64,000 nucleotides of DNA from Nitrosopumilus sp. (lineage in GTDB: Archaea > Thermoproteota > Nitrososphaeria > Nitrososphaerales > Nitrosopumilaceae). The stretch lies in the NCBI GenBank assembly GCA_965203315.1, contig CBDBCE010000005.1, positions 24,660 through 88,659 of the forward strand, in the 5' to 3' direction. The position numbers and the translations under genes are program-made. Positions 1 through 11,647 of the stretch are shown here, piece by piece. The first letter of the stretch is position 1. Every line of letters begins with the position of its first letter. The notes under the pieces are model-generated. The model saw nothing but the letters and a program-made list of their open reading frames with translations. It did no database searches and was not told the DNA's origin.

Positions 1-174
1 CTATTGGAATGGTCAATGATCACACTGCCCAATGCTATCTGTATGAATCTGCTTAAACGATATTTATGCGATATATTTAATTTGCCTATGATGAAACATG
101 ATGCTAGTTTGTTCTCATAATTGAACGTGCCTGATAGAACCCTCGCTTTTAGCGTCTATGAAAAGTATTGACTT

Positions 175-289
175 GATCTTTTCGGTTTATGGGGGACGTG
201 GACGTTTATAGAAACACTACAAGATTCTCTGAGGGAAAATTATGGAAAAACTTTACGAAATATCCTCACACGTAAATCGAAAAGAATCC
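175..289. mobile_element. Degenerate MITE, family A (IS6-type ends)
   Basis: Ends GATCTTTTCGGTTTA...TAAATCGAAAAGAATCC resemble the TIRs of the IS6 at 13903-15404. The interior aligns with the reverse complement of 9883-9997. No clean TSD. Confidence 0.75.
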
Positions 290-414
290 TGTGTTGATTC
301 TATACTGTGTAGGGTTAAGACCGTGTCGATACAGCATAGATACTAAAATTAAACAATCGATTAGATCGTACTCTGTCATCTTACAATCTTGGTATGAACG
401 AATCATTCGCGGTC

Positions 415-437
415 TTTATATGGCACGGGGGGGGGGG
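415..437 (+). promoter_or_regulatory. TATA box (TTTATAT, 415-421) of the S-layer gene followed by a G11 homopolymer (427-437)
   Basis: TATA-like box about 30 nt upstream of ATG 451; run of 11 G seen directly. Confidence 0.65.
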
Positions 438-850
438 ATAAATTAATAACATGAATAACGAAATAGGACGAAAAACAACTAGTTTAATACTAATGACAAT
501 AATGGTCGCAGGCGGACTGACCTTTGCTATACCAAGCATGGAGCCAGTATACGCCCGGTCGACACCAAACCTATACGTCTCAGCTGCTGATCCAAATGGA
601 TACGGAGCTAGATTCGACAACACCTTTGGTGGACTACAGATAGTGCAAGTAATTGTGAGTGATCCTCTACGAGATGATGCTGATGACGCACCGCCTCGTG
701 TAACCATTAATGATGATGAATTAACCATGAAATATCATAGTGGTAGTTGGTATGTATACTTTACAATAGTTGATGATCCTGATGGCAGTACACCTACTAT
801 TAACGATCTTGCTAATTTGTGGACTGATGCCGTTGGCATAAATAAACTTG

Positions 851-1753
851 GGTGATTAGCCGCGTACAGCCCCTAACATCAATTTCACCAAAAAGTTGAA
901 CAAGTCACACACCCTAAAATTATATCTCCATTCCATCTCTTTTATGTATAGTAGAAATTTGTCTTGGCTTACACCATGATGTTTAGACAATTTTTGTTTT
1001 GCAAAACTCCAGAATCCTTCAATTCCGTTGGTATGCACTTCATCTTGCCCAAACGTCTTGCTATGATCAACTGACTGGTGTTTGTAACCATGCGTGGTCA
1101 GTGGGTTGTATCCAGCCCACTTGTCTGTGTATATGGTGCTACCTTTCTCTACTACCGCAGTTATGCTGGCAAGTAAAGTGTCTGCACTAGCATCAGGTAT
1201 GATCTCAACATGTACGTTTCCACCTCTCTTCAACATACCTAAAACGATTATCTTGTTTTCTGCACCACGACCACGATTTCCTTTCCTTTTACCCCCAAAA
1301 TACGCCTCATCTACCTCAATTTCGCCACGAAACATACGAAATTCGTTGTTTGAGTGTTCCAGTATGAGGCGTCTAAATATGTCAAACGCTTGTAGCACTG
1401 TCTTGTAATTTAGCTGTGTCTGTTCTGCCGCAACCTTTGCAGAAGCGGATATCTCAAATAACTTGATTAGAATAAGCCACTTTGAATACGGTATGCAAAG
1501 TAGTGCAAAATGAATCTCTAAACGGCCTAAAATCACTCTTACACGATTTGCAGCGTAACCTACTTTTATTCTTCATTGGATAGAATTGGTTGCTTGTACA
1601 AAATTTGCATCTGATTTCTTTAGCCGATACTGATTCCAGATATCGTATTGTGGATATCTCATCACATGTTATCTTGGATAATGACCACAGATCCATCAAC
1701 TATGTGGTAAAAACACCCCCCTATTATTTAGGGGCTGTACGCGGCTAATCACC
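851..1753 (-). mobile_element. IS1595-family insertion sequence (903 bp)
   Basis: Perfect 26-bp TIRs GGTGATTAGCCGCGTACAGCCCCTAA (851-876 and 1728-1753); 8-bp TSD TAAACTTG (843-850 and 1754-1761). Confidence 0.95.
856..1699 (-). pseudogene. IS1595 (ISXO2-like) DDE transposase, frameshifted
   Basis: Zn ribbon (CKFC...CKSC) in ORF 1454-1699; catalytic motifs EVDEAYFGG, YTDKWAGY and HTNGIEGFWS in ORF 856-1536. Frames switch near the T4 at 1507-1510. Confidence 0.88.
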
Positions 1754-4700
1754 TAAACTTGTTAGGCAGCCAGGCATCACCATGGATGTTCAGAATGAAC
1801 TAAAACTACTTGAATCTGACGACACCTTTGATATAGTGTATCACAAGGCAGGAGCACCACAAACAATATCTCTCACATATGACGACTCTGTAAACAATGA
1901 TCTCAAACTAGACAGGACATCATATCCCAGAAATGCTCACGTACACGTAGAGATAACAGATCATATACTAAATCTCGATCCAACTACCAAAGATGTTTGG
2001 ATATACGATACAGACACTACAGAAACTACAGACACTCAGATAAGATATCTATATGATGATACTAGTAGTGACTCCCAACAAAGACCAAAAACCACTAATC
2101 TTGGTTGTCAAGATGACAAGTGTATGTTTAGCATAGATGGTATTAGCGACAATTCGACTAATACTGTTAACAGGATTAAAGACGAAAATAACATACTTTA
2201 TCTACATATGCCAGAGACTGTTGCTCCTCGATATATGTTTGAAGAGACAGGTCCAAACACTGGAGTCTTTAAACTAATCTCCTATCCTACTAGCAATAAA
2301 AACTACGATCTCGATGACAACGAATCTCCGATCCGGATTGAATCTATGGCTCCCCGTGGACAAAACACACAAATTCTGTATAGTGACGAGACTGTCTCTG
2401 TAAACACACGACTTACTACTGCTACTGTAAACCTAGACGTACAAGATGGCACATGGAACTCTGGCGAAAAGATTGATCTGACAATAGTAGATGCCGATCA
2501 AAATTTAAACAGTGATGCAGAGGATGATCAAAAGGTATCTAGTGCAAATGCAAGAATTCCCGTATTCGTTACAGGTGATCCACATACGTTAAAGGATGGT
2601 GAAACCGATACTATCAAACGTATATATCGCGATCTTCCCACACCTCTTCCTCATGAAGATACTTACATAGACAGCAGATCCCGCCTATTATCGTATGAAG
2701 TTGATGATAGCTATAGGGGCACATTTACTATAGATCATACAGGTGGTGGTGGCAGCGTAAGATATGACAAGCTTGTAATTCCACTAGGTACACTTGGAGA
2801 TATTCACGAGTCGATCAACGGTAATGATACCAATAAAGGAATCTTTACAGGACGTAATCTATTCAACTATGACTTTAGTAGTGTCGTTAGTGGCATTACT
2901 GTTCCTGCTGACCCTTTTACGACTGGGACAGATCAAGATAAAAACACCCAAATGAATGCTACTCTTATTGTAATGCCTGATAATGGGAGCAAGGCGGTTG
3001 TTGCTCTTTGGGGAACACTTGTCTCAACTAAGAGTATGGGCAATAGTGGATATATGGACATCACAGATTTCATGCTAGGTGAGGATGAAGACCTTAAAAA
3101 CAAAAAACTATTGGCCGATCGTACAGCACTATATAGTGTCGCAAATGTCTCCAAAAGTAGTAAAGTCAACCTCGTACTACAGTTTACTAGCAATGACGAT
3201 CTAACAAAGCCCACGATCGTAGATATGGATAAAGACAAAAAGTTCTCACTAGTCGCAGACTTTTTTTCATATGGATTCTACGATGATGGTGCACAAGCAG
3301 CCGAGAGGATTGCAAATCAAATCATACGAGTCGAGGTAGAAGAGACAGGTGAAAACACCAGTACCTTTACAGGAACACTAGAGTATGTGATGATAAACCA
3401 ACTCAACGTTAACGATCCCAAGACATACACTGATATCATGCCAAGAGGCAATGAAGTAAAATTCATCGCCTTTGAGGATCTTACCGGCTCTGACGCGCGA
3501 GTAAACTATGCAGACATAGACTCGAACGGCAACATGGCTACAGTCTCTGATCAACAAGATATTGCAACCGCTAGTGGTGTAGTATCTCTGAACGCAGAGA
3601 CATACAGTGTAGGTAGTAATGTCGTAATCACACTAGAGGACTCTGATCTGAATACAGATCCTGATCGTGCTGATACCTATACAGTAGTAACACGAAACAT
3701 GACTGACGGAACCACGAACACTGGTAAGGACAAGGACCAGGTGGGTATTGATGTCATGCCCACGTATGAGGCTCTACTACCAGGTAAGAAATCACTAGGA
3801 ATGCTACTAGAGGTAACCTTTGATGGTAAGAGATGGCAATCTGGCTGTACTCTGTCTGATGGAGTTCAGAATGGACTTGGTGCAACAGGATTCACTCTAC
3901 AAGAGACCGGATCCAGTACAGGAGTCTTTACAGGTTCCTTTGCTATACCAAAAGAGGTATGCAACTTTAATGATGATGGCAGCGTAAACACGAACGAATC
4001 TAAAATAACTGTAAGCGGCAAAGACATTGGTGTAACATATCTAGACTTTAGAGATGCATCTGGTCAAATAGTCACAGCTGGTGACTCTGCATCGATTGGT
4101 GCAAGTACAGGCTCTGTATCTCTAGATAGAACTGTATATCCAGTTCCATATGGTGCTGGTACAGAGTCAGGTTCTTCAAGAGCCCTAGACATGGCCGGAG
4201 CAAATCTTGCAGGTGGTACAGTCAAAGTCTATGTTCAAGTAAACGACCCAGACTACAACTTGAATCCTACAGGTGAGGACAAGATCGAAGACGAGTCAGG
4301 GAACGGACCAGTCAAAGTAATAGTCTCTCGCAGTGGTGACGAGTGTGTAATAGGTAATGCAGGCGGTACGACATCAGTTCCAACCGACGAGATCAGTAGA
4401 TTGTTACAAGATCGAAATACAAAGAAAGCTAGCTATGATCTAGACAAGACAAACACCGACAAACAGACAGCATATCTCTTGGCACAACTAAAGTATGATG
4501 CTGCCAGTGATACTGGTACATGTACTCCAAGGGAGTTAGGTGCTCTAACAGAGACATCTCCTGAATCAGGAGTCTTTGAGGTGAGCTTTAATCTATATCC
4601 CAAAGATGGACCAAGTGGCAGTGACTGTCCAAGTAGAACAATAGCCGACGGTACAACAAGCCGTACATGTATCCTACAAGGTGACATACTCACCGTACAG

Positions 4701-6276
4701 TACAACGACACAACAGACGCTTCTGGTAATCCACGTACAGTCACAGACTCTGCTACCTTTGATCTACGAAACGGTGCTCTACAGACAGACAAGTCTGTAT
4801 ATGTGATAGGCTCGGACATGATCGTAACACTCATCGATCCAGACCTTGATCTAGACAGCGGTACACGCGAAACATACACACTTGATCTGATCAAGTGGGA
4901 CTCGGACGCAGGTACCAAGAATCTGAGTGAAGGTATATTCGATGCAGAACCAGGCTCTCTACGAGAGACTGGTCCTAGCACAGGTATCTTCCAAGTGGTC
5001 ATATCTGTTCCCAAGGCCATAGACAACGACAGACTAGAACGAGGCGAAGAGATCAAGCTAGAATACACCGACTATGGACCATCAGGTGCAGACTTTGTAG
5101 GTGATAACACAGAAGATATCGACAGAACGGTATTCACATCAAACTTTGGTGCTACAATAGAACTAGATCAAAGTGTATACAGTTGGACCGACAAGGTATT
5201 CATTACTGTAACAGCTCCTGATCACAACCTAAACACAAACCAAGTAGACGAGATTGGTGCTAATCCATATCCAGTGCGTGTTGCTACAAGATCCGACGAC
5301 ATTAAAAACTACAAACTCGTAGAGACAGGTACAAACACTGGTATCTTTACAGGTGAAGTAATACTGACAGGATTCTCGTACGACGCAGACGGTGATCAAG
5401 ATACAGGCGAAGATGGTAAAGACGTCACAGGTCGTACATGTGACACATGTAATGGACCAACCGATGGACTATTACCAACAGACAACGACGACGGACTCGA
5501 GGTATCATTCGAGTTCTCTGACGACGAGACTGTTCGCAAGTCTGCTCTAATCCGTTGGAACATTGGTGAAGTTCAGTGGCTAGAAGCAAGTTATCCTGCT
5601 ACAGCTACAGGCGTACTACGTGTAATCGATCCCGACATGAACTTGAATCCAGAATCTGCAGACAACTTTGAGGTCAAAGTATGGTCTTCTAGTGCACCTA
5701 GTGGAATAACCCTTACAGTAACAGAGACTCAACCAGCAAGTGGTATCTTTGAAGGTACTGTATTCTTTGGACTCTCTGTCCAATCAGGTGGTCACAAACT
5801 ATCCACAGAAGAAGGAGACACAGTCACTGCAAAGTACAGCGACAACACTCTACCTGCTCCATACAGTAAAGGCGACTCTGAAGAGATCACTGCAACCACC
5901 ATAATAGGAACAATAGTACCTCCTCTAGAACGAGTAAAGATCGAGTCGTTGAGAATAGTAGACTCTACAGGTACAACACTCAGTACAGTATCAATAGATC
6001 AACAAGTCCAGATCACTGCAGATTTGACAAACACACAAGACAAAGACCAGCCATTTGCATACTTGGTACAAATTCAAGATAGCGATGGCGTAACGGTATC
6101 TCTGTCTTGGATTGATGGTTCACTAACACCATCTCAGTCGTTTAGTCCATCTCAGTCTTGGATACCAACAGCAGCCGGTGAATACACAATTACCGTATTT
6201 GCATGGGAGTCGTTGACTATACCAACTGCACTATCTCCACAACAGACAACAACAATAACTGTAAACTAGTTCAAAC

Positions 6277-6297
6277 TTTCTCTTTTTTTCTTTTTTT
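6277..6297 (+). terminator. Oligo-T archaeal terminator of slaA
   Basis: TTTCTCTTTTTTTCTTTTTTT directly after the stop codon. Confidence 0.7.
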
Positions 6298-6493
6298 ATA
6301 TTTACATAATACAATATACAATATACACAATGTAGCTTATGCATGGCGATAGCTGTATACAGTAACGGCTACAGCACACGATAGTATTCTGTACCTACGT
6401 CACGTTATGACCAGATGATCCCTGCTCTCTCATTCTCTATTCTCGCATCATACAATATTGATCATTCACAAGAATATTCTCTTAACTTATCTG

Positions 6494-6704
6494 GGACAGT
6501 TGGAATTTAGGAGTTCTTGGAATTATACTAGTGGTAAAAGTACCATGATAAAAAACTAAAAAATTACATGATTCATGATTCCAATATCAAAAATTTACAT
6601 AATTCAAGATGTATTGTTCAATAACATGTAAAATTTTTTGTGAATTGTTTACAGGATTGTCACTGCCTGCAAATTTCCAAGAACTCTCTTAATTTCCAAC
6701 TGCC
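6494..6704. mobile_element. Putative MITE (~210 bp) with ~30-bp imperfect TIRs
   Basis: CAGTTGGAATTTAGGAGTTCTTGGAATT versus AATTTCCAAGAACTCTCTTAATTTCCAACTG; AT-rich non-coding interior; no TSD found. Confidence 0.6.
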
Positions 6705-6894
6705 TTTCTATAAGAGAGCTGATGATTAATCAAGACTGACGTATTGTTTGGAGAATGTTTCTGAATCCGGTAAATTCTAGTAATTATTTCCTTTGCCTTC
6801 CACTTGTTACGTCACCTCATTCTATCTAAACACAACCCCTGCTGTCAGAATGAATGCTGTGTCTGATTCGAGACCATTCGTCTAACTTTTATCG

Positions 6895-8160
6895 TTGAGT
6901 GTTTCATGTATGATCATGCGGTTAATGATCATAATTTTACTGATCTGTGTCATACCTGCATATGCTCAAGAGTATCCTGATCTCGGCGTATATGTGGAGC
7001 CTGTGCATCAAAACCTAGTTGTTCCATGGAGTGTAGATTGGTTACCTGATGGAACTATGATATTTACTGAACGTGGTGGCGATCTCTGGATTTCCGACAA
7101 TGTACCACCAAGACTGATCCTGTCACTAGATACCGGTGGAATTGAAGGAGGACTGTTAGGTCTTGCTGTCGATCCTGACTTTGAATCTAACAACTACATC
7201 TATCTGTACTATACATATTCAGATTTTTTCACTTTGATGAACAAAGTTGTACGATATCAGTATGTTGACGGCAGTGTGTATGGTGAGACAACCCTTGTAG
7301 ATCGAATTCCTGGTGGTCCTGTACATGACGGTGGACGAATACAATTTGGACCTGATGAAAAGCTATACATCACGACTGGCGATGCTGGTGTACCTAGCCT
7401 CGCTCAAGATGTTGACTCACTAGCTGGCAAGATACTCAGAATAAATCGTGACGGATCCATACCTAGCGATAATCCGTGGCCAAACTCTCCTGTGTATACT
7501 ATGGGGCATAGAAATCCACAAGGAATTGATTGGGACAGATATGGAAACTTGGTCGCATCCGAACACGGTCCATCAGGATTTTCATCTGGACATGATGAAA
7601 TCAATATAATCATATCTGGCACAAATTATGGGTGGCCAAATATAGTTGGCGATGAGTCTACTTTTGGAATGTCGACTCCATTTTATCATACTGGTCAAGA
7701 TACGTGGGCACCATCTGGTGTAGAGTTTTATGATGGTGGTACTATACCTGCATGGACTGGAAAGTACTTTGTAGCTGCATTGTATAGCCAAAACTTACAC
7801 ATGTTTGATATCAATGCTACTGACGGTACTCTTTCGTCTCACCAATCTTTGTTTCAGGATGAGTTTGGACGTCTACGTGACGTACAAACAGGTCCTGACG
7901 GTCATCTATACTTGTTGACTAGTAATCGTGATGGCCGAGGTAGTCCTTCACCAAACGATGATCAAATACTTCGAGTAATGCCTTTGGACAGCAAGTGCAC
8001 AAATGATTCAAACACATGTTTGGCTGATTCACGTATTCCTCAATGGGTAAAGGAAATATTTGCTGCGTATTTGGACGATATGATAACCGAGGATGAACTG
8101 TTGAACGCATTACAATATCTCATAGAACAAAAGGTGATTCTAATCGACGCAGACAGATGA
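6895..8160 (+). CDS. Exported PQQ-dependent glucose/sorbosone dehydrogenase family protein with thaumarchaeal C-terminal IPxWVK domain
   Basis: Motifs GEGGLLGLAVDPDF-like, HDGGRIQFGPD, GHRNPQG, NYGWP, GRLRDV; signal peptide; C-terminal IPQWVK...ALQYLI. Confidence 0.88.
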   Translation: MSVSCMIMRLMIIILLICVIPAYAQEYPDLGVYVEPVHQNLVVPWSVDWLPDGTMIFTERGGDLWISDNVPPRLILSLDTGGIEGGLLGLAVDPDFESNNYIYLYYTYSDFFTLMNKVVRYQYVDGSVYGETTLVDRIPGGPVHDGGRIQFGPDEKLYITTGDAGVPSLAQDVDSLAGKILRINRDGSIPSDNPWPNSPVYTMGHRNPQGIDWDRYGNLVASEHGPSGFSSGHDEINIIISGTNYGWPNIVGDESTFGMSTPFYHTGQDTWAPSGVEFYDGGTIPAWTGKYFVAALYSQNLHMFDINATDGTLSSHQSLFQDEFGRLRDVQTGPDGHLYLLTSNRDGRGSPSPNDDQILRVMPLDSKCTNDSNTCLADSRIPQWVKEIFAAYLDDMITEDELLNALQYLIEQKVILIDADR

Positions 8161-8488
8161 CTTGGTGCTTTCACGTTGGTGTATTGAGTCAGACTTTTTT
8201 TAAATTGGCGATTAGGGATATCGAGCCTCCAAACCTACTGATCGATAACACAGTAAAATAGATACGAAATTCGAACATATTGAGATAGAGTCGATTGACT
8301 TTCAATCAGTTTCTGATGTGTCTCTTCATTTTTTGATTGATTTCTGACATTAAATTTGTATAGTCCAAGGGTCATTTAGAGCAATGGATGTTTAATCACC
8401 TAGATTTTAATCAAACATTTGTAGACTAGACATTACTAGCATACAGAAATTAGGGTGTCTGAATAAATTATATGTTGTAAAGTTTCAC

Positions 8489-9844
8489 ATGATATTAGTG
8501 AAAAAATCAACAAATGTCTCTACGAGGACGATCAAACGACCACGTGGCAGACCTAGAAAAACCGATACCAGCACAACAACTAAACGACCACGTGGCAGAC
8601 CTAGAAAAACCGATACCAGCACAACAACTAAACGACCACGTGGCAGACCTAGAAAAACCGATACCAGCACAACAACTAAACGACCACGTGGCAGACCTAG
8701 AAAAACCGATACCAGCACAACAACTAAACGACCACGTGGCAGACCTAGAAAAACCGATACCAGCACAACAACTAAACGACCACGTGGCAGACCTAGAAAA
8801 ACCGATACCAGCACAACAACTAAACGACCACGTGGCAGACCTAGAAAAACCGATACCAGCACAACAACTAAACGACCACGTGGCAGACCTAGAAAAACCG
8901 ATACCAGCACAACAACTAAACGACCACGTGGCAGACCTAGAAAAACCGATACCAGCACAACAACTAAACGACCACGTGGCAGACCTAGAAAAACCGATAC
9001 CAGCACAACAACTAAACGACCACGTGGCAGACCTAGAAAAACCGATACCAGCACAACAACTAAACGACCACGTGGCAGACCTAGAAAAACCGATACCAGC
9101 ACAACAACTAAACGACCACGTGGCAGACCTAGAAAAACCGATACCAGCACAACAACTAAACGACCACGTGGCAGACCTAGAAAAACCGATACCAGCACAA
9201 CAACTAAACGACCACGTGGCAGACCAAAAAAATCACTTCTTGACAGCTTGTCTGAGTTAGCTGCCGAAATTGAACAAGATAAGCTAAAAAAGGCAAGTGA
9301 TGTGAACCAGCTGGAACAAACAAAAAATCAACCAACATTTCAAGCAAAACATATGGTGACAAACGACTCGGTCAAAATAGATAAAGCCGAATTAAACAAA
9401 ACACTAAAACAGATAGATGAAAAAATAGCAAAGGTATTAAAATATTATATAGTTGATACTGATGCGAAGGAGATCAGATCTATTACAGATTATTTAATGT
9501 CTGACATCAAAGACATAGTAGTCGAAAATATGAAGGCTAATCAAAGAGTTGTGTACAAAAAGTTTTCTAAACAACTGGAAAGTAGAATTATTAGAGGGCT
9601 TAAAAATATTAACATTGTAAAGCATGTATGTTATGACAACAGTTCAACGCATGATTACATGAATCTGATTGTGATATATGATCACAAGAATAGTTCTCAC
9701 GCATACGATATAATCTCTGACATAGTTCAGAGTGTTGAGGTTGATCGTCACAAGCTATATATCGACTTGAACATATTAAGTGTGTCTGAAGCTAATGCTA
9801 ATCCTGAATTTCTAAAGCATACTACCACTCTACTTACACGATAA
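8489..9844 (+). CDS. Multi-AT-hook DNA-binding protein (15 x KRPRGRP[RK]K) with C-terminal globular domain
   Basis: Canonical AT-hook core PRGRP repeated 15 times; the ORF continues ~200 aa past the repeat; AT-rich TATA-like sequence upstream. Confidence 0.8.
   Translation: MILVKKSTNVSTRTIKRPRGRPRKTDTSTTTKRPRGRPRKTDTSTTTKRPRGRPRKTDTSTTTKRPRGRPRKTDTSTTTKRPRGRPRKTDTSTTTKRPRGRPRKTDTSTTTKRPRGRPRKTDTSTTTKRPRGRPRKTDTSTTTKRPRGRPRKTDTSTTTKRPRGRPRKTDTSTTTKRPRGRPRKTDTSTTTKRPRGRPRKTDTSTTTKRPRGRPRKTDTSTTTKRPRGRPRKTDTSTTTKRPRGRPKKSLLDSLSELAAEIEQDKLKKASDVNQLEQTKNQPTFQAKHMVTNDSVKIDKAELNKTLKQIDEKIAKVLKYYIVDTDAKEIRSITDYLMSDIKDIVVENMKANQRVVYKKFSKQLESRIIRGLKNINIVKHVCYDNSSTHDYMNLIVIYDHKNSSHAYDIISDIVQSVEVDRHKLYIDLNILSVSEANANPEFLKHTTTLLTR
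8534..9225 (+). repeat. Perfect 48-bp tandem repeat, 14 full units plus a partial 15th
   Basis: Unit AAACGACCACGTGGCAGACCTAGAAAAACCGATACCAGCACAACAACT; (9206-8534)/48 = 14. Confidence 0.95.
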
Positions 9845-9882
9845 ATTCACATGATGCTCAATTATGTATGATTAAGTTAATA

Positions 9883-9997
9883 GGATCTTTTCGATTTAAG
9901 TGGGATAAAATTTCGCAAGGCTTTTCCATAATTTTCCCTTATGGGATTTCGCAGTGTTTTCTATAGCCCTTCTATCCCATGCAAATCGAAAAGATCT
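9883..9997. mobile_element. MITE family A (IS6-type ends)
   Basis: GGATCTTTTCGATTT...AAATCGAAAAGATCT; same ends as the IS6 at 13903; homologous to 175-289. Confidence 0.8.
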
Positions 9998-10199
9998 AGT
10001 AGAGCACCTCAATCTACTCGCAAGACTCTGGTTTGTTAGTTGTCTTATGAATATGCGGTGTTGAGTCTTAACTCGTAGCTTGTCTAAACACAATACGTCT
10101 TGACCTCGGATTTTGATTTTATTCCCTTTCTAGCGACTCGGAGATCATATAAAATCTAACGAAAGAAACAGTTATCCATAAGGCTTGCGGATACTAGTT

Positions 10200-10607
10200 A
10201 TGTCAAATGCAGAATCGCCGTTTTGTGACCCCCTGGAGAAACAAAACAAATTTGCAACATCGATCTCTTGTATGGATGGACGAATTCAGATTCCTCTATA
10301 CAATTGGATCAAGACAACATATCGAGTCAACTATGTTGATGTGATAACAGAACCGGGAGTCGACAAAAAAATGTCTGAGGATGTAGGCATCGAGACTATT
10401 CGAGACAAGGTTTTGATATCGGTCAACGCTCATAAATCTCAAATAGTTGCAGTGTCTGGACACTATGACTGTGCAGCCAATCCTGTAGATGCTGAGAGAC
10501 ATATGTCTGAGATCAATAATGCAGTAGCGATCATAAAATCTTGGGATCTTGGAGTCAATGTAATAGGTCTCTGGGTAGATGACTCTTGGAATGTTAACCT
10601 GCTCTAA
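10200..10607 (+). CDS. Putative beta-class-like carbonic anhydrase
   Basis: Zn-ligand pattern CMDGR...HYDC. Confidence 0.75.
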   Translation: MSNAESPFCDPLEKQNKFATSISCMDGRIQIPLYNWIKTTYRVNYVDVITEPGVDKKMSEDVGIETIRDKVLISVNAHKSQIVAVSGHYDCAANPVDAERHMSEINNAVAIIKSWDLGVNVIGLWVDDSWNVNLL

Positions 10608-11023: not shown

Positions 11024-11647
11024 ATGCGCAAAAAGAGAGGTCTCATCCGAGAGAGGATAATTCGAATATTACTCAACAATCCTAGTGGCGATCTCACAAA
11101 ATACAGGGTGGCGAAATTAGCAGACGCTGCATATTCTTGGGTACATGACTTTCTCAAGAATTTAGAAAGTAACAGTTTGATAAAAAAGACCAGTGTTGCA
11201 AACCATCAAGGCCTCTTCTCGCTTTGGAGGGAGTTTCAGATTATTCCTGAGAAGAGAGAATACATGATTCAAGATCCGTTCAAGATCCTCAAATCCAATG
11301 CACTAAAATATGCTCTTACTACATATGTGGGAGAAAATTTAATGCAAAAATATCTCATCCCTTCCCGTGTTGATTTTTACATAGATCCAAAAGACAAAGC
11401 AAAGTGGCATGACATTCTCTCTAATAGTGGTCTTGTCGGAAAAGGCAATGTTCGAGTGTTGATTGGTGACACCCATGTCTTTTACAACATGTTTGAAAGA
11501 GAAGGACTCAACACTGTCTCGATTCCCCAACTGATCGTAGATCTCTTGAGAGAGGGAGGCCCGTGTGGAGAGGCAGCCGAGATGCTTATAGAAAAAGAGG
11601 AAGAACGGTTTGCATTAGACAATGAGAAAAGCCTAAGTCAATTATAG
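11024..11647 (+). CDS. wHTH protein resembling a type IV TA AbiEi-like antitoxin
   Basis: N-terminal HTH; YALT...VDFYI...VSIPQLIVDL..EGG..GEAAE.L pattern. Confidence 0.55.
   Translation: MRKKRGLIRERIIRILLNNPSGDLTKYRVAKLADAAYSWVHDFLKNLESNSLIKKTSVANHQGLFSLWREFQIIPEKREYMIQDPFKILKSNALKYALTTYVGENLMQKYLIPSRVDFYIDPKDKAKWHDILSNSGLVGKGNVRVLIGDTHVFYNMFEREGLNTVSIPQLIVDLLREGGPCGEAAEMLIEKEEERFALDNEKSLSQL

Follow-up and report, generated by a model that had tools for sequence, protein, structure and literature searches.

The window, the whole 64,000-nucleotide stretch of Nitrosopumilus sp. DNA that was analyzed, contains an intact ORF at 8489–9844 (plus strand) that encodes a 451-residue protein, referred to here as the AT-hook protein. 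Its ATG is the first start within the open frame. The gene sits at the edge of a ~10-kb insertion, and the features of the locus are listed below.

48–10184, no strand: block of ~10.1 kb, absent between the same flanking genes in congeners (boundaries approximate).
8465–8479, plus strand: A/T-rich motif AAATTATATGTTGTA, a candidate archaeal TATA-box/promoter element that starts 24 nt 5′ of the ATG.
8489–9844, plus strand: coding sequence, stop codon included; 451 aa, predicted pI 11.4, net charge about +78 at pH 7.
8534–9205, plus strand: 14 full 48-bp units, each coding KRPRGRPRKTDTSTTT (one AT-hook and a Thr-rich spacer), from unit comparison.
9206–9232, plus strand: 15th, partial unit coding KRPRGRPKK, from translation, Pfam and unit comparison.
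9233–9382, plus strand: linker, predicted by AF2 as a helix (aa 250–275) followed by a low-confidence, probably disordered stretch (aa 277–293).
9383–9544, plus strand: helical hairpin (aa 299–320 and 326–352; AF2 helices H51–72 and H78–104), the predicted homodimer interface.
9551–9841, plus strand: α/β domain (aa 355–451; aa ~361–451 as seen in the AF2 model) with a predicted minimal nucleotidyltransferase (MNT) fold, from AF2, Foldseek and VIA-align; the G[SG] / [DE]x[DE] signature is absent.
9883–9997, no strand: MITE-like element, ~115 bp long, whose terminal inverted repeats (GATCTTTTCGATTT) measure 14 nt; it begins 38 bp past the stop codon.

The block contains an IS1595-like transposase ORF (856–1536, minus strand), a gene for a 1495-aa surface-type protein (1782–6269), a GSDH-family gene (6895–8160, assigned by Pfam), and the AT-hook gene. 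In 11 of 11 congener loci, the orthologue of the Pro_CA_2 gene (a Pfam match) is directly preceded by the orthologue of the gene at C6:24161–24706 of genome G000, which ends at window position ~47. The MITE-like element has 92 genomic copies of at least 60 nt. Overall G+C is 39%, with islands that are richer in A/T, and the genome contains many other perfect coding tandem repeats.

Tandem Repeats Finder run on the window identified a repeat at 8534–9232 with a period of 48, 14.6 copies, 99% matches, and a score of 1384. Unit-by-unit comparison showed that the full 48-bp units are identical at the DNA level (14/14), and that the 15th unit, which begins at 9206, has the same first 20 bases and diverges thereafter. 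The translated array is KRPRGRPRKTDTSTTT 14 times followed by KRPRGRPKK, exactly as the first-pass annotation of this DNA had read it. Its count of 15 genuine AT-hooks also held: Pfam AT_hook (PF02178) matched 15 stretches of the protein with 104.4 bits (E 1.8e-31; cut-off 17.4), and in a genome scan 14 single hooks of the gene scored 18.5 bits each against the same cut-off. The protein has the RGRP core with basic flanks that defines the motif. The net charge of about +78 resides in the array; the C-terminal part is near neutral (−0.9). The hook count is the count as assembled, and a perfect 672-bp array is the kind of figure that assemblies get wrong. Contigs from public runs (X1, X3, and X4) that match the 3′ half of the gene end 7 to 37 bases inside the array. 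The present assembly may itself derive from runs X1 and X3, and the contigs from a second study (X4) are base-identical over the 3′ half. Run X8, guessed to be RNA, gave no match to 9233–10100, which is evidence neither for nor against expression.

Two further long ORFs cross the repeat (8514–9260, plus strand; 8485–9198, minus strand). They are by-products because the 48-bp unit is free of stop codons, and among the frames over the repeat only the AT-hook frame continues into a conserved domain. The base identity of the 14 units points to a very recent expansion. Most likely, they were amplified in frame from a 48-bp unit that pre-existed as three copies in the closest paralogue, C1:1733048–1733980. 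The 3 hooks of this paralogue are coded by a homologous 48-bp unit in three identical copies, and a hand count gives 3 differences over the first 29 bases between the two units. In the family tree, these two genes with hooks group as sisters (85/81, moderate support), and their C-terminal domains are 51% identical. The 15-mer AAATTATATGTTGTA is also found 5′ of the 3-hook paralogue, and the similar TATATACTGTAAA lies 5′ of paralogue C1:943875–944375. By sequence, AAATTATATGTTGTA would be the promoter of a leaderless or short-leader mRNA.

The structure of aa 249–451 was predicted with AF2 from a shallow 17-row alignment (mean pLDDT 81.3, pTM 0.50). The first-pass annotation described a helical linker and a ~100-aa domain. 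The model shows this to be roughly right, but the C-terminal 203 residues represent, from end to end, the long form of a protein family that is very narrow. The linker segment with pLDDT below 50 corresponds to model residues 29–45. A homodimer model of the C-terminal fragment scored 0.72, and the best of three controls scored 0.00. At least 50% of the contacts agreed between runs, and the partner pLDDT was at least 71. Among solved proteins, 20 of 30 one-chain pairs and 1 of 23 single-chain proteins reach this mark. The score is a model's confidence, our own alignment went into it, and the calibration is only roughly valid. The predicted contacts involve fragment residues 47–116, which form the helical hairpin. 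The hairpin thus probably makes a homodimer; the earlier proposal of an oligomerization module agrees with the model, but the predicted interface is in the hairpin and not in the α/β domain to which it had been assigned.

The C-terminus had been described as nucleotidyltransferase-like, and a structure search of aa ~300–451 had been proposed. Foldseek with the model of aa 249–451 placed MntA/MNT antitoxins on top (6m6v_A, 7ae2_B, 7aer_A, and 8xeo_A), with E values of 6.7e-4 to 4e-3 and TM by target of 0.44–0.64. The best match by VIA-align, which is independent of Foldseek, was 8xeh_E, which is the MNT chain from a complex of HEPN and MNT (Z 9.7, rmsd 3.2, 91 aligned), followed by five nucleotidyltransferase chains at Z 6.8–8.2 that include 1ylq_B (8.2), 2rff_A (7.9), 1no5_B (7.6), and 5yep_A (7.5). 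The VIA-align matches cover model residues ~107–203. C-terminal domains of CDF transporters and BolA-like folds were also among the structure matches. These comparisons of a predicted model support the minimal nucleotidyltransferase fold for aa ~355–451, in agreement with the first reading.

At the sequence level, Pfam PF01909 had no match up to E 10 in any of 17 family members, and hhalign of the family against 21 canonical archaeal MNTs gave a probability of 0.1%. Profiles A1 and A2, run with hmmsearch on the ORFs of 29 loci with canonical MNTs, found no match up to E 10, and a PDB profile search returned only ribosomal protein uS8 (E 0.3). The best ESM Atlas values for aa 295–451 were 0.86–0.88, to bacterial clusters, under the 0.9 lead level. 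The weak NCBIfam candidates AbiGI and RsfS were rejected as far under threshold; AbiGI reached 14.3 bits (E 0.02), and its cut-off is 300. The catalytic signature of MNTs is hG[GS] ... [DE]h[DE]h, and it is visible in the 21 canonical archaeal MNTs compared. The pattern G[SG].{5,20}[DE].[DE] occurs in the last 100 residues of 0/17 family members, which bears out the observation that GS and DxD are lacking. Strands 1 and 2 of the model are connected by a short loop (residues 136–141), and canonical MNTs carry at this place GS and ~10 further residues ahead of DxD. The domain has family motifs of its own, namely CY[ED]N, SE, a conserved His that follows strand 2, and TTT close to the C terminus. 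Y134 is invariant in the family alignment, and [ED]N, H, SE, and TTT are also conserved. Because the family keeps these conserved polar residues, it may have a ligand-binding or catalytic role of another kind.

The MNT-fold family has 14 copies in this genome and is rare in sequence collections (8 clusters among 1.84 billion representatives; 11 proteins in 5.8 billion). A MITE copy lies within 350 bp of 7 of the 14 family genes, compared to 8.1% of 20,000 random 500-bp intervals with a copy within 800 bp. A partner gene for a protein of ~111 aa lies directly 3′ in 8 of 9 short paralogues, with seven partners intact or near-intact and one degraded; three partner copies in this genome have stops or are reduced to fragments. 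The copies in other genomes are directly 5′ of the partner gene in 8 of 8 cases, and the order is the MNT-fold gene first and the HEPN-fold gene next. The partner model (pLDDT 85) best matches HEPN proteins 2hsb (TM 0.77/0.69, rmsd 2.7) and 4nqf, with the HepT toxins 7bxo_G, 6m6w_H, and 5yep_B as further matches; the Foldseek E-value behind the HEPN assignment is weak, 0.084. When hhalign compared the partner family to 10 canonical HEPN neighbors, the probability was 0.4%. The same alignment puts the invariant His and the ARY motif of the partner on the TH and SRY of canonical HEPNs, a suggestive correspondence between sequences. HEPN proteins follow the rule Rx4-6H. In the partner alignment, Arg-Tyr (R83-Y84) is invariant, and no His was seen 4–6 residues past it.

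The position of the partner 3′ of the short copies and in 8/8 foreign copies indicates that the family ancestor was a toxin-antitoxin-like MNT-fold/HEPN-fold pair. The AT-hook gene has no partner gene within ±5 kb, and the 9 matches in a whole-genome partner scan all lie away from it. It is a partner-less solo copy. The long subfamily to which it belongs is a separate clade (support 100/100) with 20–29% identity to the short, partnered copies, and one long-form paralogue is interrupted by a TAG.

The C-terminal domain as a single query had no match in 60 related genomes, 36 of them of the same genus, and the family profile found matches in 8 of 400 genomes of the class. A search for homologues with and without hooks, suggested by the first-pass annotation, yielded the 3-hook paralogue in the same genome, but the 8 foreign family copies are all hookless. 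Arrays of 3–6 AT-hooks on other scaffolds recur in related genomes: two adjoining genes with 4 hooks each in G018, a gene with 5 hooks in G002, and small helix-plus-3-to-6-hook proteins in G202, G251, and G130. In P0023, ~13 hooks are fused to PF09537/PF05974. The 15 hooks of the AT-hook protein are the highest count among the 401 genomes of the class scanned. The other multi-hook proteins resemble it in having tandem hooks, spacers of Thr, Pro, and acidic residues, and assorted scaffolds, but their repeats are fewer or not identical, and the MNT-fold family domain was found on none of them. The 14-copy family derived from an MNT-fold/HEPN-fold pair, the 3-hook paralogue, and the shorter arrays in relatives had been overlooked by the first reading. 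Searches of a paper library found nothing on AT-hook proteins of Thaumarchaeota and nothing relevant tying AT-hooks to HEPN/MNT systems.

Sequence and models establish the anatomy, predicted folds, family relations, missing catalytic signature, and genomic setting. The reading that we prefer, held to be somewhat better than even, goes further, to DNA binding, dimerization in the cell, and a biological role. In it, the gene encodes a two-module, extremely basic, cytoplasmic protein. The first module is the N-terminal array of 15 canonical AT-hooks that arose by recent in-frame amplification of the 48-bp unit, and the second is the hairpin, probably homodimerizing, followed by a catalytically degenerate MNT-fold domain from a solo copy that lost its HEPN-fold partner from an ancestral two-gene cassette. 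If the dimer forms in the cell, it would offer up to 30 minor-groove hooks that could coat or bridge A/T-rich DNA. The dead MNT-fold domain may serve not as an enzyme but as a scaffold or a head that binds other proteins. We infer for the protein an accessory, strain-specific role in the flexible genome as a nucleoid-associated or silencer-like protein.

The solo protein could instead be an orphan antitoxin that binds HEPN-fold partners in trans, with its hooks repressing the cassette promoters or sequestering a partner on the nucleoid. Its C-terminal part is homologous over the full length to the 5′ gene of the cassette, the genome has eight partner loci, and DNA-binding, autoregulating antitoxins are the rule in type II systems. 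Three points make this idea unlikely. The long subfamily is a clade apart from the partnered short copies, operator recognition needs far fewer than fifteen hooks, and AT-hooks have little sequence specificity. It is rather improbable that the gene is an evolutionary by-product, that is, a decaying solo copy with a slippage-inflated repeat and little or no expression or selected function, whose 15 hooks are perhaps partly an assembly artifact. The very recent expansion implied by 14 identical units, the TAG in a long-form paralogue, the damage to three partner copies, the abundance of perfect coding repeats in the genome, and the public contigs that end at the array all fit decay. However, the 451-codon frame stays intact through the 699-bp repeat and the 609 unique bp that follow, the X4 contigs match its 3′ half base for base, the promoter-like motif is common to the AT-hook gene and the 3-hook paralogue, and the hook unit is retained in two paralogues with C-terminal domains that are just 51% identical.

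The first-pass annotation suggested a chromatin organizer or xenogeneic silencer, taken here as a core or general one of the archaeal lineage. An oligomerization module (from the model) combined with minor-groove A/T binders parallels H-NS/Lsr2-type silencers, and the 39% G+C genome has A/T-richer islands. We regard this role as improbable; a core protein would be expected across the genus, and the lack of conservation argues against it, with 0/60 relatives by single sequence, 8/400 genomes by profile, all hookless, and a gene that lies within a strain-specific insertion absent in 11/11 congeners. An active DNA-tethered nucleotidyltransferase that, for example, AMPylates a target as MntA does is hardly credible, for although the predicted fold matches MntA-type enzymes, the candidate fails on the signature, which 0/17 family members have, the short loop between strands 1 and 2 where canonical MNTs carry GS...DxD, and the nil sequence similarity to PF01909.

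The preferred reading, a dimeric accessory DNA-binding protein, was compared to known systems. HMGA proteins have three hooks, an acidic tail, and no folded domain. The archaeal protein shares with them the AT-hook itself (basic-RGRP-basic core, PF02178), flexible spacers, and a hook region that is presumably disordered when free. It differs in having 15 hooks on base-identical repeats, a predicted dimerization hairpin, and an MNT-fold domain, and the architecture (451 aa, with a folded C-terminal 203 aa at pLDDT 81 and charge −0.9) places it outside HMGA. CarD of Myxococcus xanthus has four C-terminal hooks and an N-terminal CarD/TRCF domain that interacts with RNA polymerase. Both of these prokaryotic proteins combine an array of AT-hooks with a folded domain for protein interaction, but the module order is reversed in the archaeal protein. 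It is not of the CarD type: there is no CarD/CdnL/TRCF domain, and Pfam up to E 10 gave only AT_hook and three sub-threshold chance matches. MntA/MNT antitoxins, which belong to the type VII (HEPN-MNT) toxin-antitoxin systems, share the modeled fold of aa ~355–451 and the family gene order with a HEPN-fold gene. The AT-hook protein differs from them in lacking GS/DxD, sequence similarity, and a HEPN partner, and it has an extra helical hairpin and the AT-hook array. The bacterial xenogeneic silencers H-NS, Lsr2, MvaT, and Rok consist of an oligomerization module joined to an A/T-minor-groove binder, in some cases with AT-hook-like RGR motifs. The archaeal protein is predicted to share this design principle. 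Where the silencers have one binding domain, each of its chains has many hooks, and it is strain-specific, not lineage-wide. The H-NS, Lsr2, MvaT, and Rok families are not among the Pfam, NCBIfam, or structure matches listed for the 451-aa protein.

The scope of the AT-hook gene finding is one species. A broader and more doubtful idea is that AT-hook arrays, textbook motifs of eukaryotic chromatin, are, in this family of ammonia-oxidiser-type archaea, a recurrent, movable DNA-tethering cassette on unrelated scaffolds. Placed here on a domesticated, dead antitoxin dimer, the cassette might yield an archaeal analogue of the bacterial xenogeneic silencers whose valency is tuned by gain and loss of 48-bp units (3 versus 15 hooks). 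Independent of the AT-hooks, the analysis identifies a very narrow family of MNT-fold/HEPN-fold pairs with 14 copies in one genome and an association with a MITE. Should the predicted DNA binding hold, the AT-hook protein would represent a toxin-antitoxin component turned into a nucleoid protein, and an archaeal, flexible-genome counterpart of the H-NS-like silencers.

The AT-hook gene (window 8489-9844, plus strand) is one uninterrupted frame of 451 codons, counted from the frame's first start codon. Tandem Repeats Finder was run over 7500-10500 and reported a single array there, at 8534-9232 (period 48, 14.6 copies, 99% matches). Cutting the array unit by unit revealed that all 14 full 48-bp units are identical base for base, and that unit 15 keeps the first 20 bases and is unique sequence thereafter. 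The frame translates as KRPRGRPRKTDTSTTT repeated 14 times followed by KRPRGRPKK, and the Pfam AT_hook model matched 15 stretches with 104.4 bits (cut-off 17.4). These data bear out the tandem AT-hook frame called in the first-pass annotation. Two further long ORFs overlap the array, one per strand, because the unit is stop-free there as well; of the three frames, the AT-hook frame alone runs on into a conserved domain.

A search of the source genome (2.47 Mb in seven contigs) with residues 249-451 identified 13 additional copies with E values from 3.8e-50 to 0.0031. By homology, the C-terminal part of the protein is a family member and no odd tail. The long group has five members: the AT-hook gene, a 310-aa paralogue (C1:1733048-1733980; C1 and C5 are contigs of this genome), two copies that lack hooks, and one interrupted by a TAG. 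The short group comprises nine proteins of ~108-154 aa. The long clade, which consists of the five genomic copies and the foreign protein P0003, has support of 100/100; within it, the two genes with hooks pair as sisters, moderately supported (85/81). The family is extremely narrow. It forms 8 clusters among 1.84 billion representative proteins, and of 5.8 billion proteins its profile matched 11, of which this genome contributes 6. A single-sequence search of 60 related genomes (36 of the same genus) gave a family match in none, and the profile search was positive in 8 of 400 genomes of the class, all of the same taxonomic family and spread over five genera.

An AlphaFold2 model of residues 249-451, computed from a 17-row family alignment, has a mean pLDDT of 81.3 and a pTM of 0.50. 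The model begins with a helix and a linker of low confidence, continues with a pair of long helices, and ends in an alpha-beta-beta-alpha-beta-alpha-beta domain. The top Foldseek matches in the PDB are minimal nucleotidyltransferase (MNT) antitoxins of HEPN-MNT systems (6m6v_A, E 6.7e-4, then 7ae2_B, 7aer_A, and 8xeo_A; TM by target 0.44-0.64). VIA-align, which is independent of Foldseek, ranked 8xeh_E first, the MNT chain of a HEPN-MNT complex (Z 9.7, rmsd 3.2, 91 residues aligned). The immunity protein 8hhj_A was second (Z 8.8), followed by minimal and aminoglycoside nucleotidyltransferases (1ylq_B, 8.2; 2rff_A, 7.9; 1no5_B, 7.6; 5yep_A, 7.5; 1wot, 6.8). The nucleotidyltransferase matches all cover model residues ~107-203. 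Best Z values of 7-8 are common even for unmatched models, so a Z of 9.7 with a consistent family beneath it gives moderate, not overwhelming, support. C-terminal domains of CDF transporters and BolA-like proteins are present in both lists.

The ORFs within 5 kb of the 14 family copies were compared all-against-all, and a single conserved neighbor emerged, an all-helical protein of ~111 aa whose gene comes immediately after the short copies. A profile scan of the genome with this partner gave 9 hits, spread over 8 loci; a TGA interrupts one hit, one locus is fragmented, and one has a TAG in the scanned frame. The partner is present now or was formerly at 8 of the 9 short copies, and neither the ORFs within 5 kb nor the genome-wide scan placed one beside any of the 5 long copies. 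In the 8 other genomes holding the family, the partner directly follows the family copy in 8 of 8 cases. The partner model (pLDDT 85) best matches the HEPN-domain proteins 2hsb (TM 0.77/0.69, rmsd 2.7, Foldseek E 0.084) and 4nqf, and it also resembles the HepT toxins of MntA-HepT complexes (7bxo_G, 6m6w_H, and 5yep_B; TM ~0.6); sequence-level searches gave no support for a HEPN relationship. The independent MNT and HEPN fold assignments reinforce each other, because together they match both members of an established gene pair, in the established order. From these models we interpret the family as a toxin-antitoxin-like cassette of the MNT-fold/HEPN-fold kind, very divergent, with the two-gene cassette as its ancestral context. 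The AT-hook protein could also be an orphan antitoxin that still acts in trans on the HEPN-fold proteins, a role we consider unlikely. Neither half of the cassette has a Pfam match or canonical catalytic signatures. Outside the window, cassette sites lie at C1:634-760 kb and C5:219-248 kb and at loci L006-L013. The tally is 8 loci in this genome (3 with degraded partners), and among the 400 other class genomes 8 hold it once or twice.

The C-terminal part of the 310-aa paralogue is 51% identical to that of the AT-hook protein, and it carries three identical 48-bp units, each encoding KRPRGRPKKTTTAETT. By manual count, the units of the two genes differ at 3 of the first 29 bases. Homologous units in both paralogues make the hook unit older than their duplication, and the two arrays have been homogenized or expanded separately since. 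Identity at every base across all 14 units indicates a very recent amplification. Public contigs on the 3' half match the window identically, yet stop 7-37 bases into the array, and the unit count is as assembled. The gene might be an unselected leftover of a selfish cassette that was inflated only recently, its count possibly inflated in assembly too; the frame is intact and the hook unit is kept in both paralogues, and we regard this as rather improbable.

AT-hook arrays also occur elsewhere. At E <= 0.05, Pfam AT_hook matched in 15 of the 401 class genomes scanned; in 10 of these the match exceeded the cut-off, and 15 hooks is the maximum in this sample. Congener G018 has two adjoining genes with 4 hooks apiece, congener G002 has 5 hooks, and three genomes of a sister genus encode small proteins of one helix and 3-6 hooks. 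Spacers in these arrays are of similar Thr/acidic/Pro character, and none of these proteins has the MNT-fold domain. The wider protein collection holds multi-hook proteins on other scaffolds, such as P0023 with ~13 hooks. The AT-hook array is a recurrent module and no singular invention. The ~430-aa proteins at L016 (G018) and L021 (G002) have 4-5 AT-hooks, then KPKGTLPKGFG repeats and a conserved C-terminal region; KGTLPKGF-type repeats are also found at C5:292941-293381 and C5:320662-320923. A 169-codon frame at C1:~229.9-230.7 kb starts MGRPRK and continues with ~12 tandem RGRKPGTK-type units, carried on near-perfect 84/132/216-bp repeats; it is the genome's second strongly basic repeat protein of a hook-like type. 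A 352-aa transposase-like frame (C5:249123-250178) has a single AT-hook-like KKGRGRPHK (15 bits, below cut-off).

Features of the window around the AT-hook gene
451-855, 134-aa ORF with a signal-peptide-like start
856-1536, minus strand, IS1595-like transposase ORF
1782-6269, 1495-aa surface-type ORF
9883-9997, MITE-like element of ~115 bp with 14-nt terminal inverted repeats GATCTTTTCGATTT
10185-10607, Pro_CA_2 gene, downstream of the AT-hook gene

From 30 congeners with a match, the 11 best loci were compared, and in 11 of 11 the Pro_CA_2 orthologue is directly preceded by the orthologue of the gene ending at window ~47. In this genome, 10.1 kb separate the two, and the block holds the IS1595-like transposase ORF, the 1495-aa surface-type protein, a GSDH-family gene, and the AT-hook gene. 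The MITE-like element begins 38 bp past the AT-hook stop codon; genome-wide, 92 copies reach at least 60 nt. A copy is found no more than 350 bp from 7 of the 14 family genes, among them 4 of the 5 long ones, compared with only 8.1% of random intervals that have one inside 800 bp. The element is enriched beside family genes. The insertion's absence from all 11 congener loci and the MITE association therefore assign the AT-hook gene to the flexible genome. A lineage-wide chromatin organizer is quite unlikely, as the gene is missing from the relatives searched. The 'chromatin organizer' of the first-pass annotation is too strong a label. A 15-nt A/T-rich motif 24 nt upstream of the ATG, common to the 3-hook paralogue, is a plausible candidate TATA-type promoter. 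The transposase ORF sits between the 134-aa and 1495-aa ORFs and may have split one large surface-protein gene. A 207-aa ORF (window 11024-11647) with a winged-helix-like N terminus and no Pfam match lies between the Pro_CA_2 and ferritin-like genes; these are adjacent in congener locus L028, so it may be another insertion. A tandem-repeat scan found a CRISPR-like array at C1:1011654-1016338 (repeat GTCTGAATGAAACTTCTACTAAAACAAAGATTGAAAC).

PF01909 was absent among Pfam hits up to E 10 for all 17 family members, and hhalign of the family against 21 canonical archaeal MNTs, taken from genomic loci, gave a probability of 0.1%. The G[SG]...[DE]x[DE] signature is present in 0 of 17. An active nucleotidyltransferase is extremely improbable. 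The earlier interpretation was right in part: the hooks and a dead nucleotidyltransferase-like fold without GS and DxD stand, and membership in the sequence family does not. Its oligomerization module is plausible, but located elsewhere than proposed. The predicted homodimer of residues 249-451 scores 0.72 (three runs, 0.67, 0.72, and 0.73), and the highest of 3 controls scored 0.00. Among proteins of solved structure, 20 of 30 one-chain pairs and 1 of 23 single chains attained this mark, a calibration that is rough because a custom alignment was used. At least 50% of contacts agree between runs, with a partner pLDDT of at least 71. The model thus supports a homodimer, with its predicted interface in the helical hairpin (residues ~295-364), outside the alpha/beta domain.

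The net charge of the array is about +78, and the remainder of the protein is near neutral. A dimer would hold as many as 30 hooks for the minor groove, tethered by flexible Thr-rich spacers, and could coat or bridge A/T-rich DNA; the dead MNT-fold heads would remain available as a scaffold or to bind something else. DNA binding, dimerization in vivo, and any regulatory consequence are what we infer from this architecture; phosphorylation switches in the Thr/Ser-rich spacers are pure speculation. The protein resembles HMGA and CarD in its binding element and H-NS and Lsr2 in overall design, but belongs to none of them. It combines known parts in a new way, so far in one species and within a family that is very narrow and looks mobile, and its role would probably be that of a dimeric, DNA-coating or DNA-bridging hook protein.
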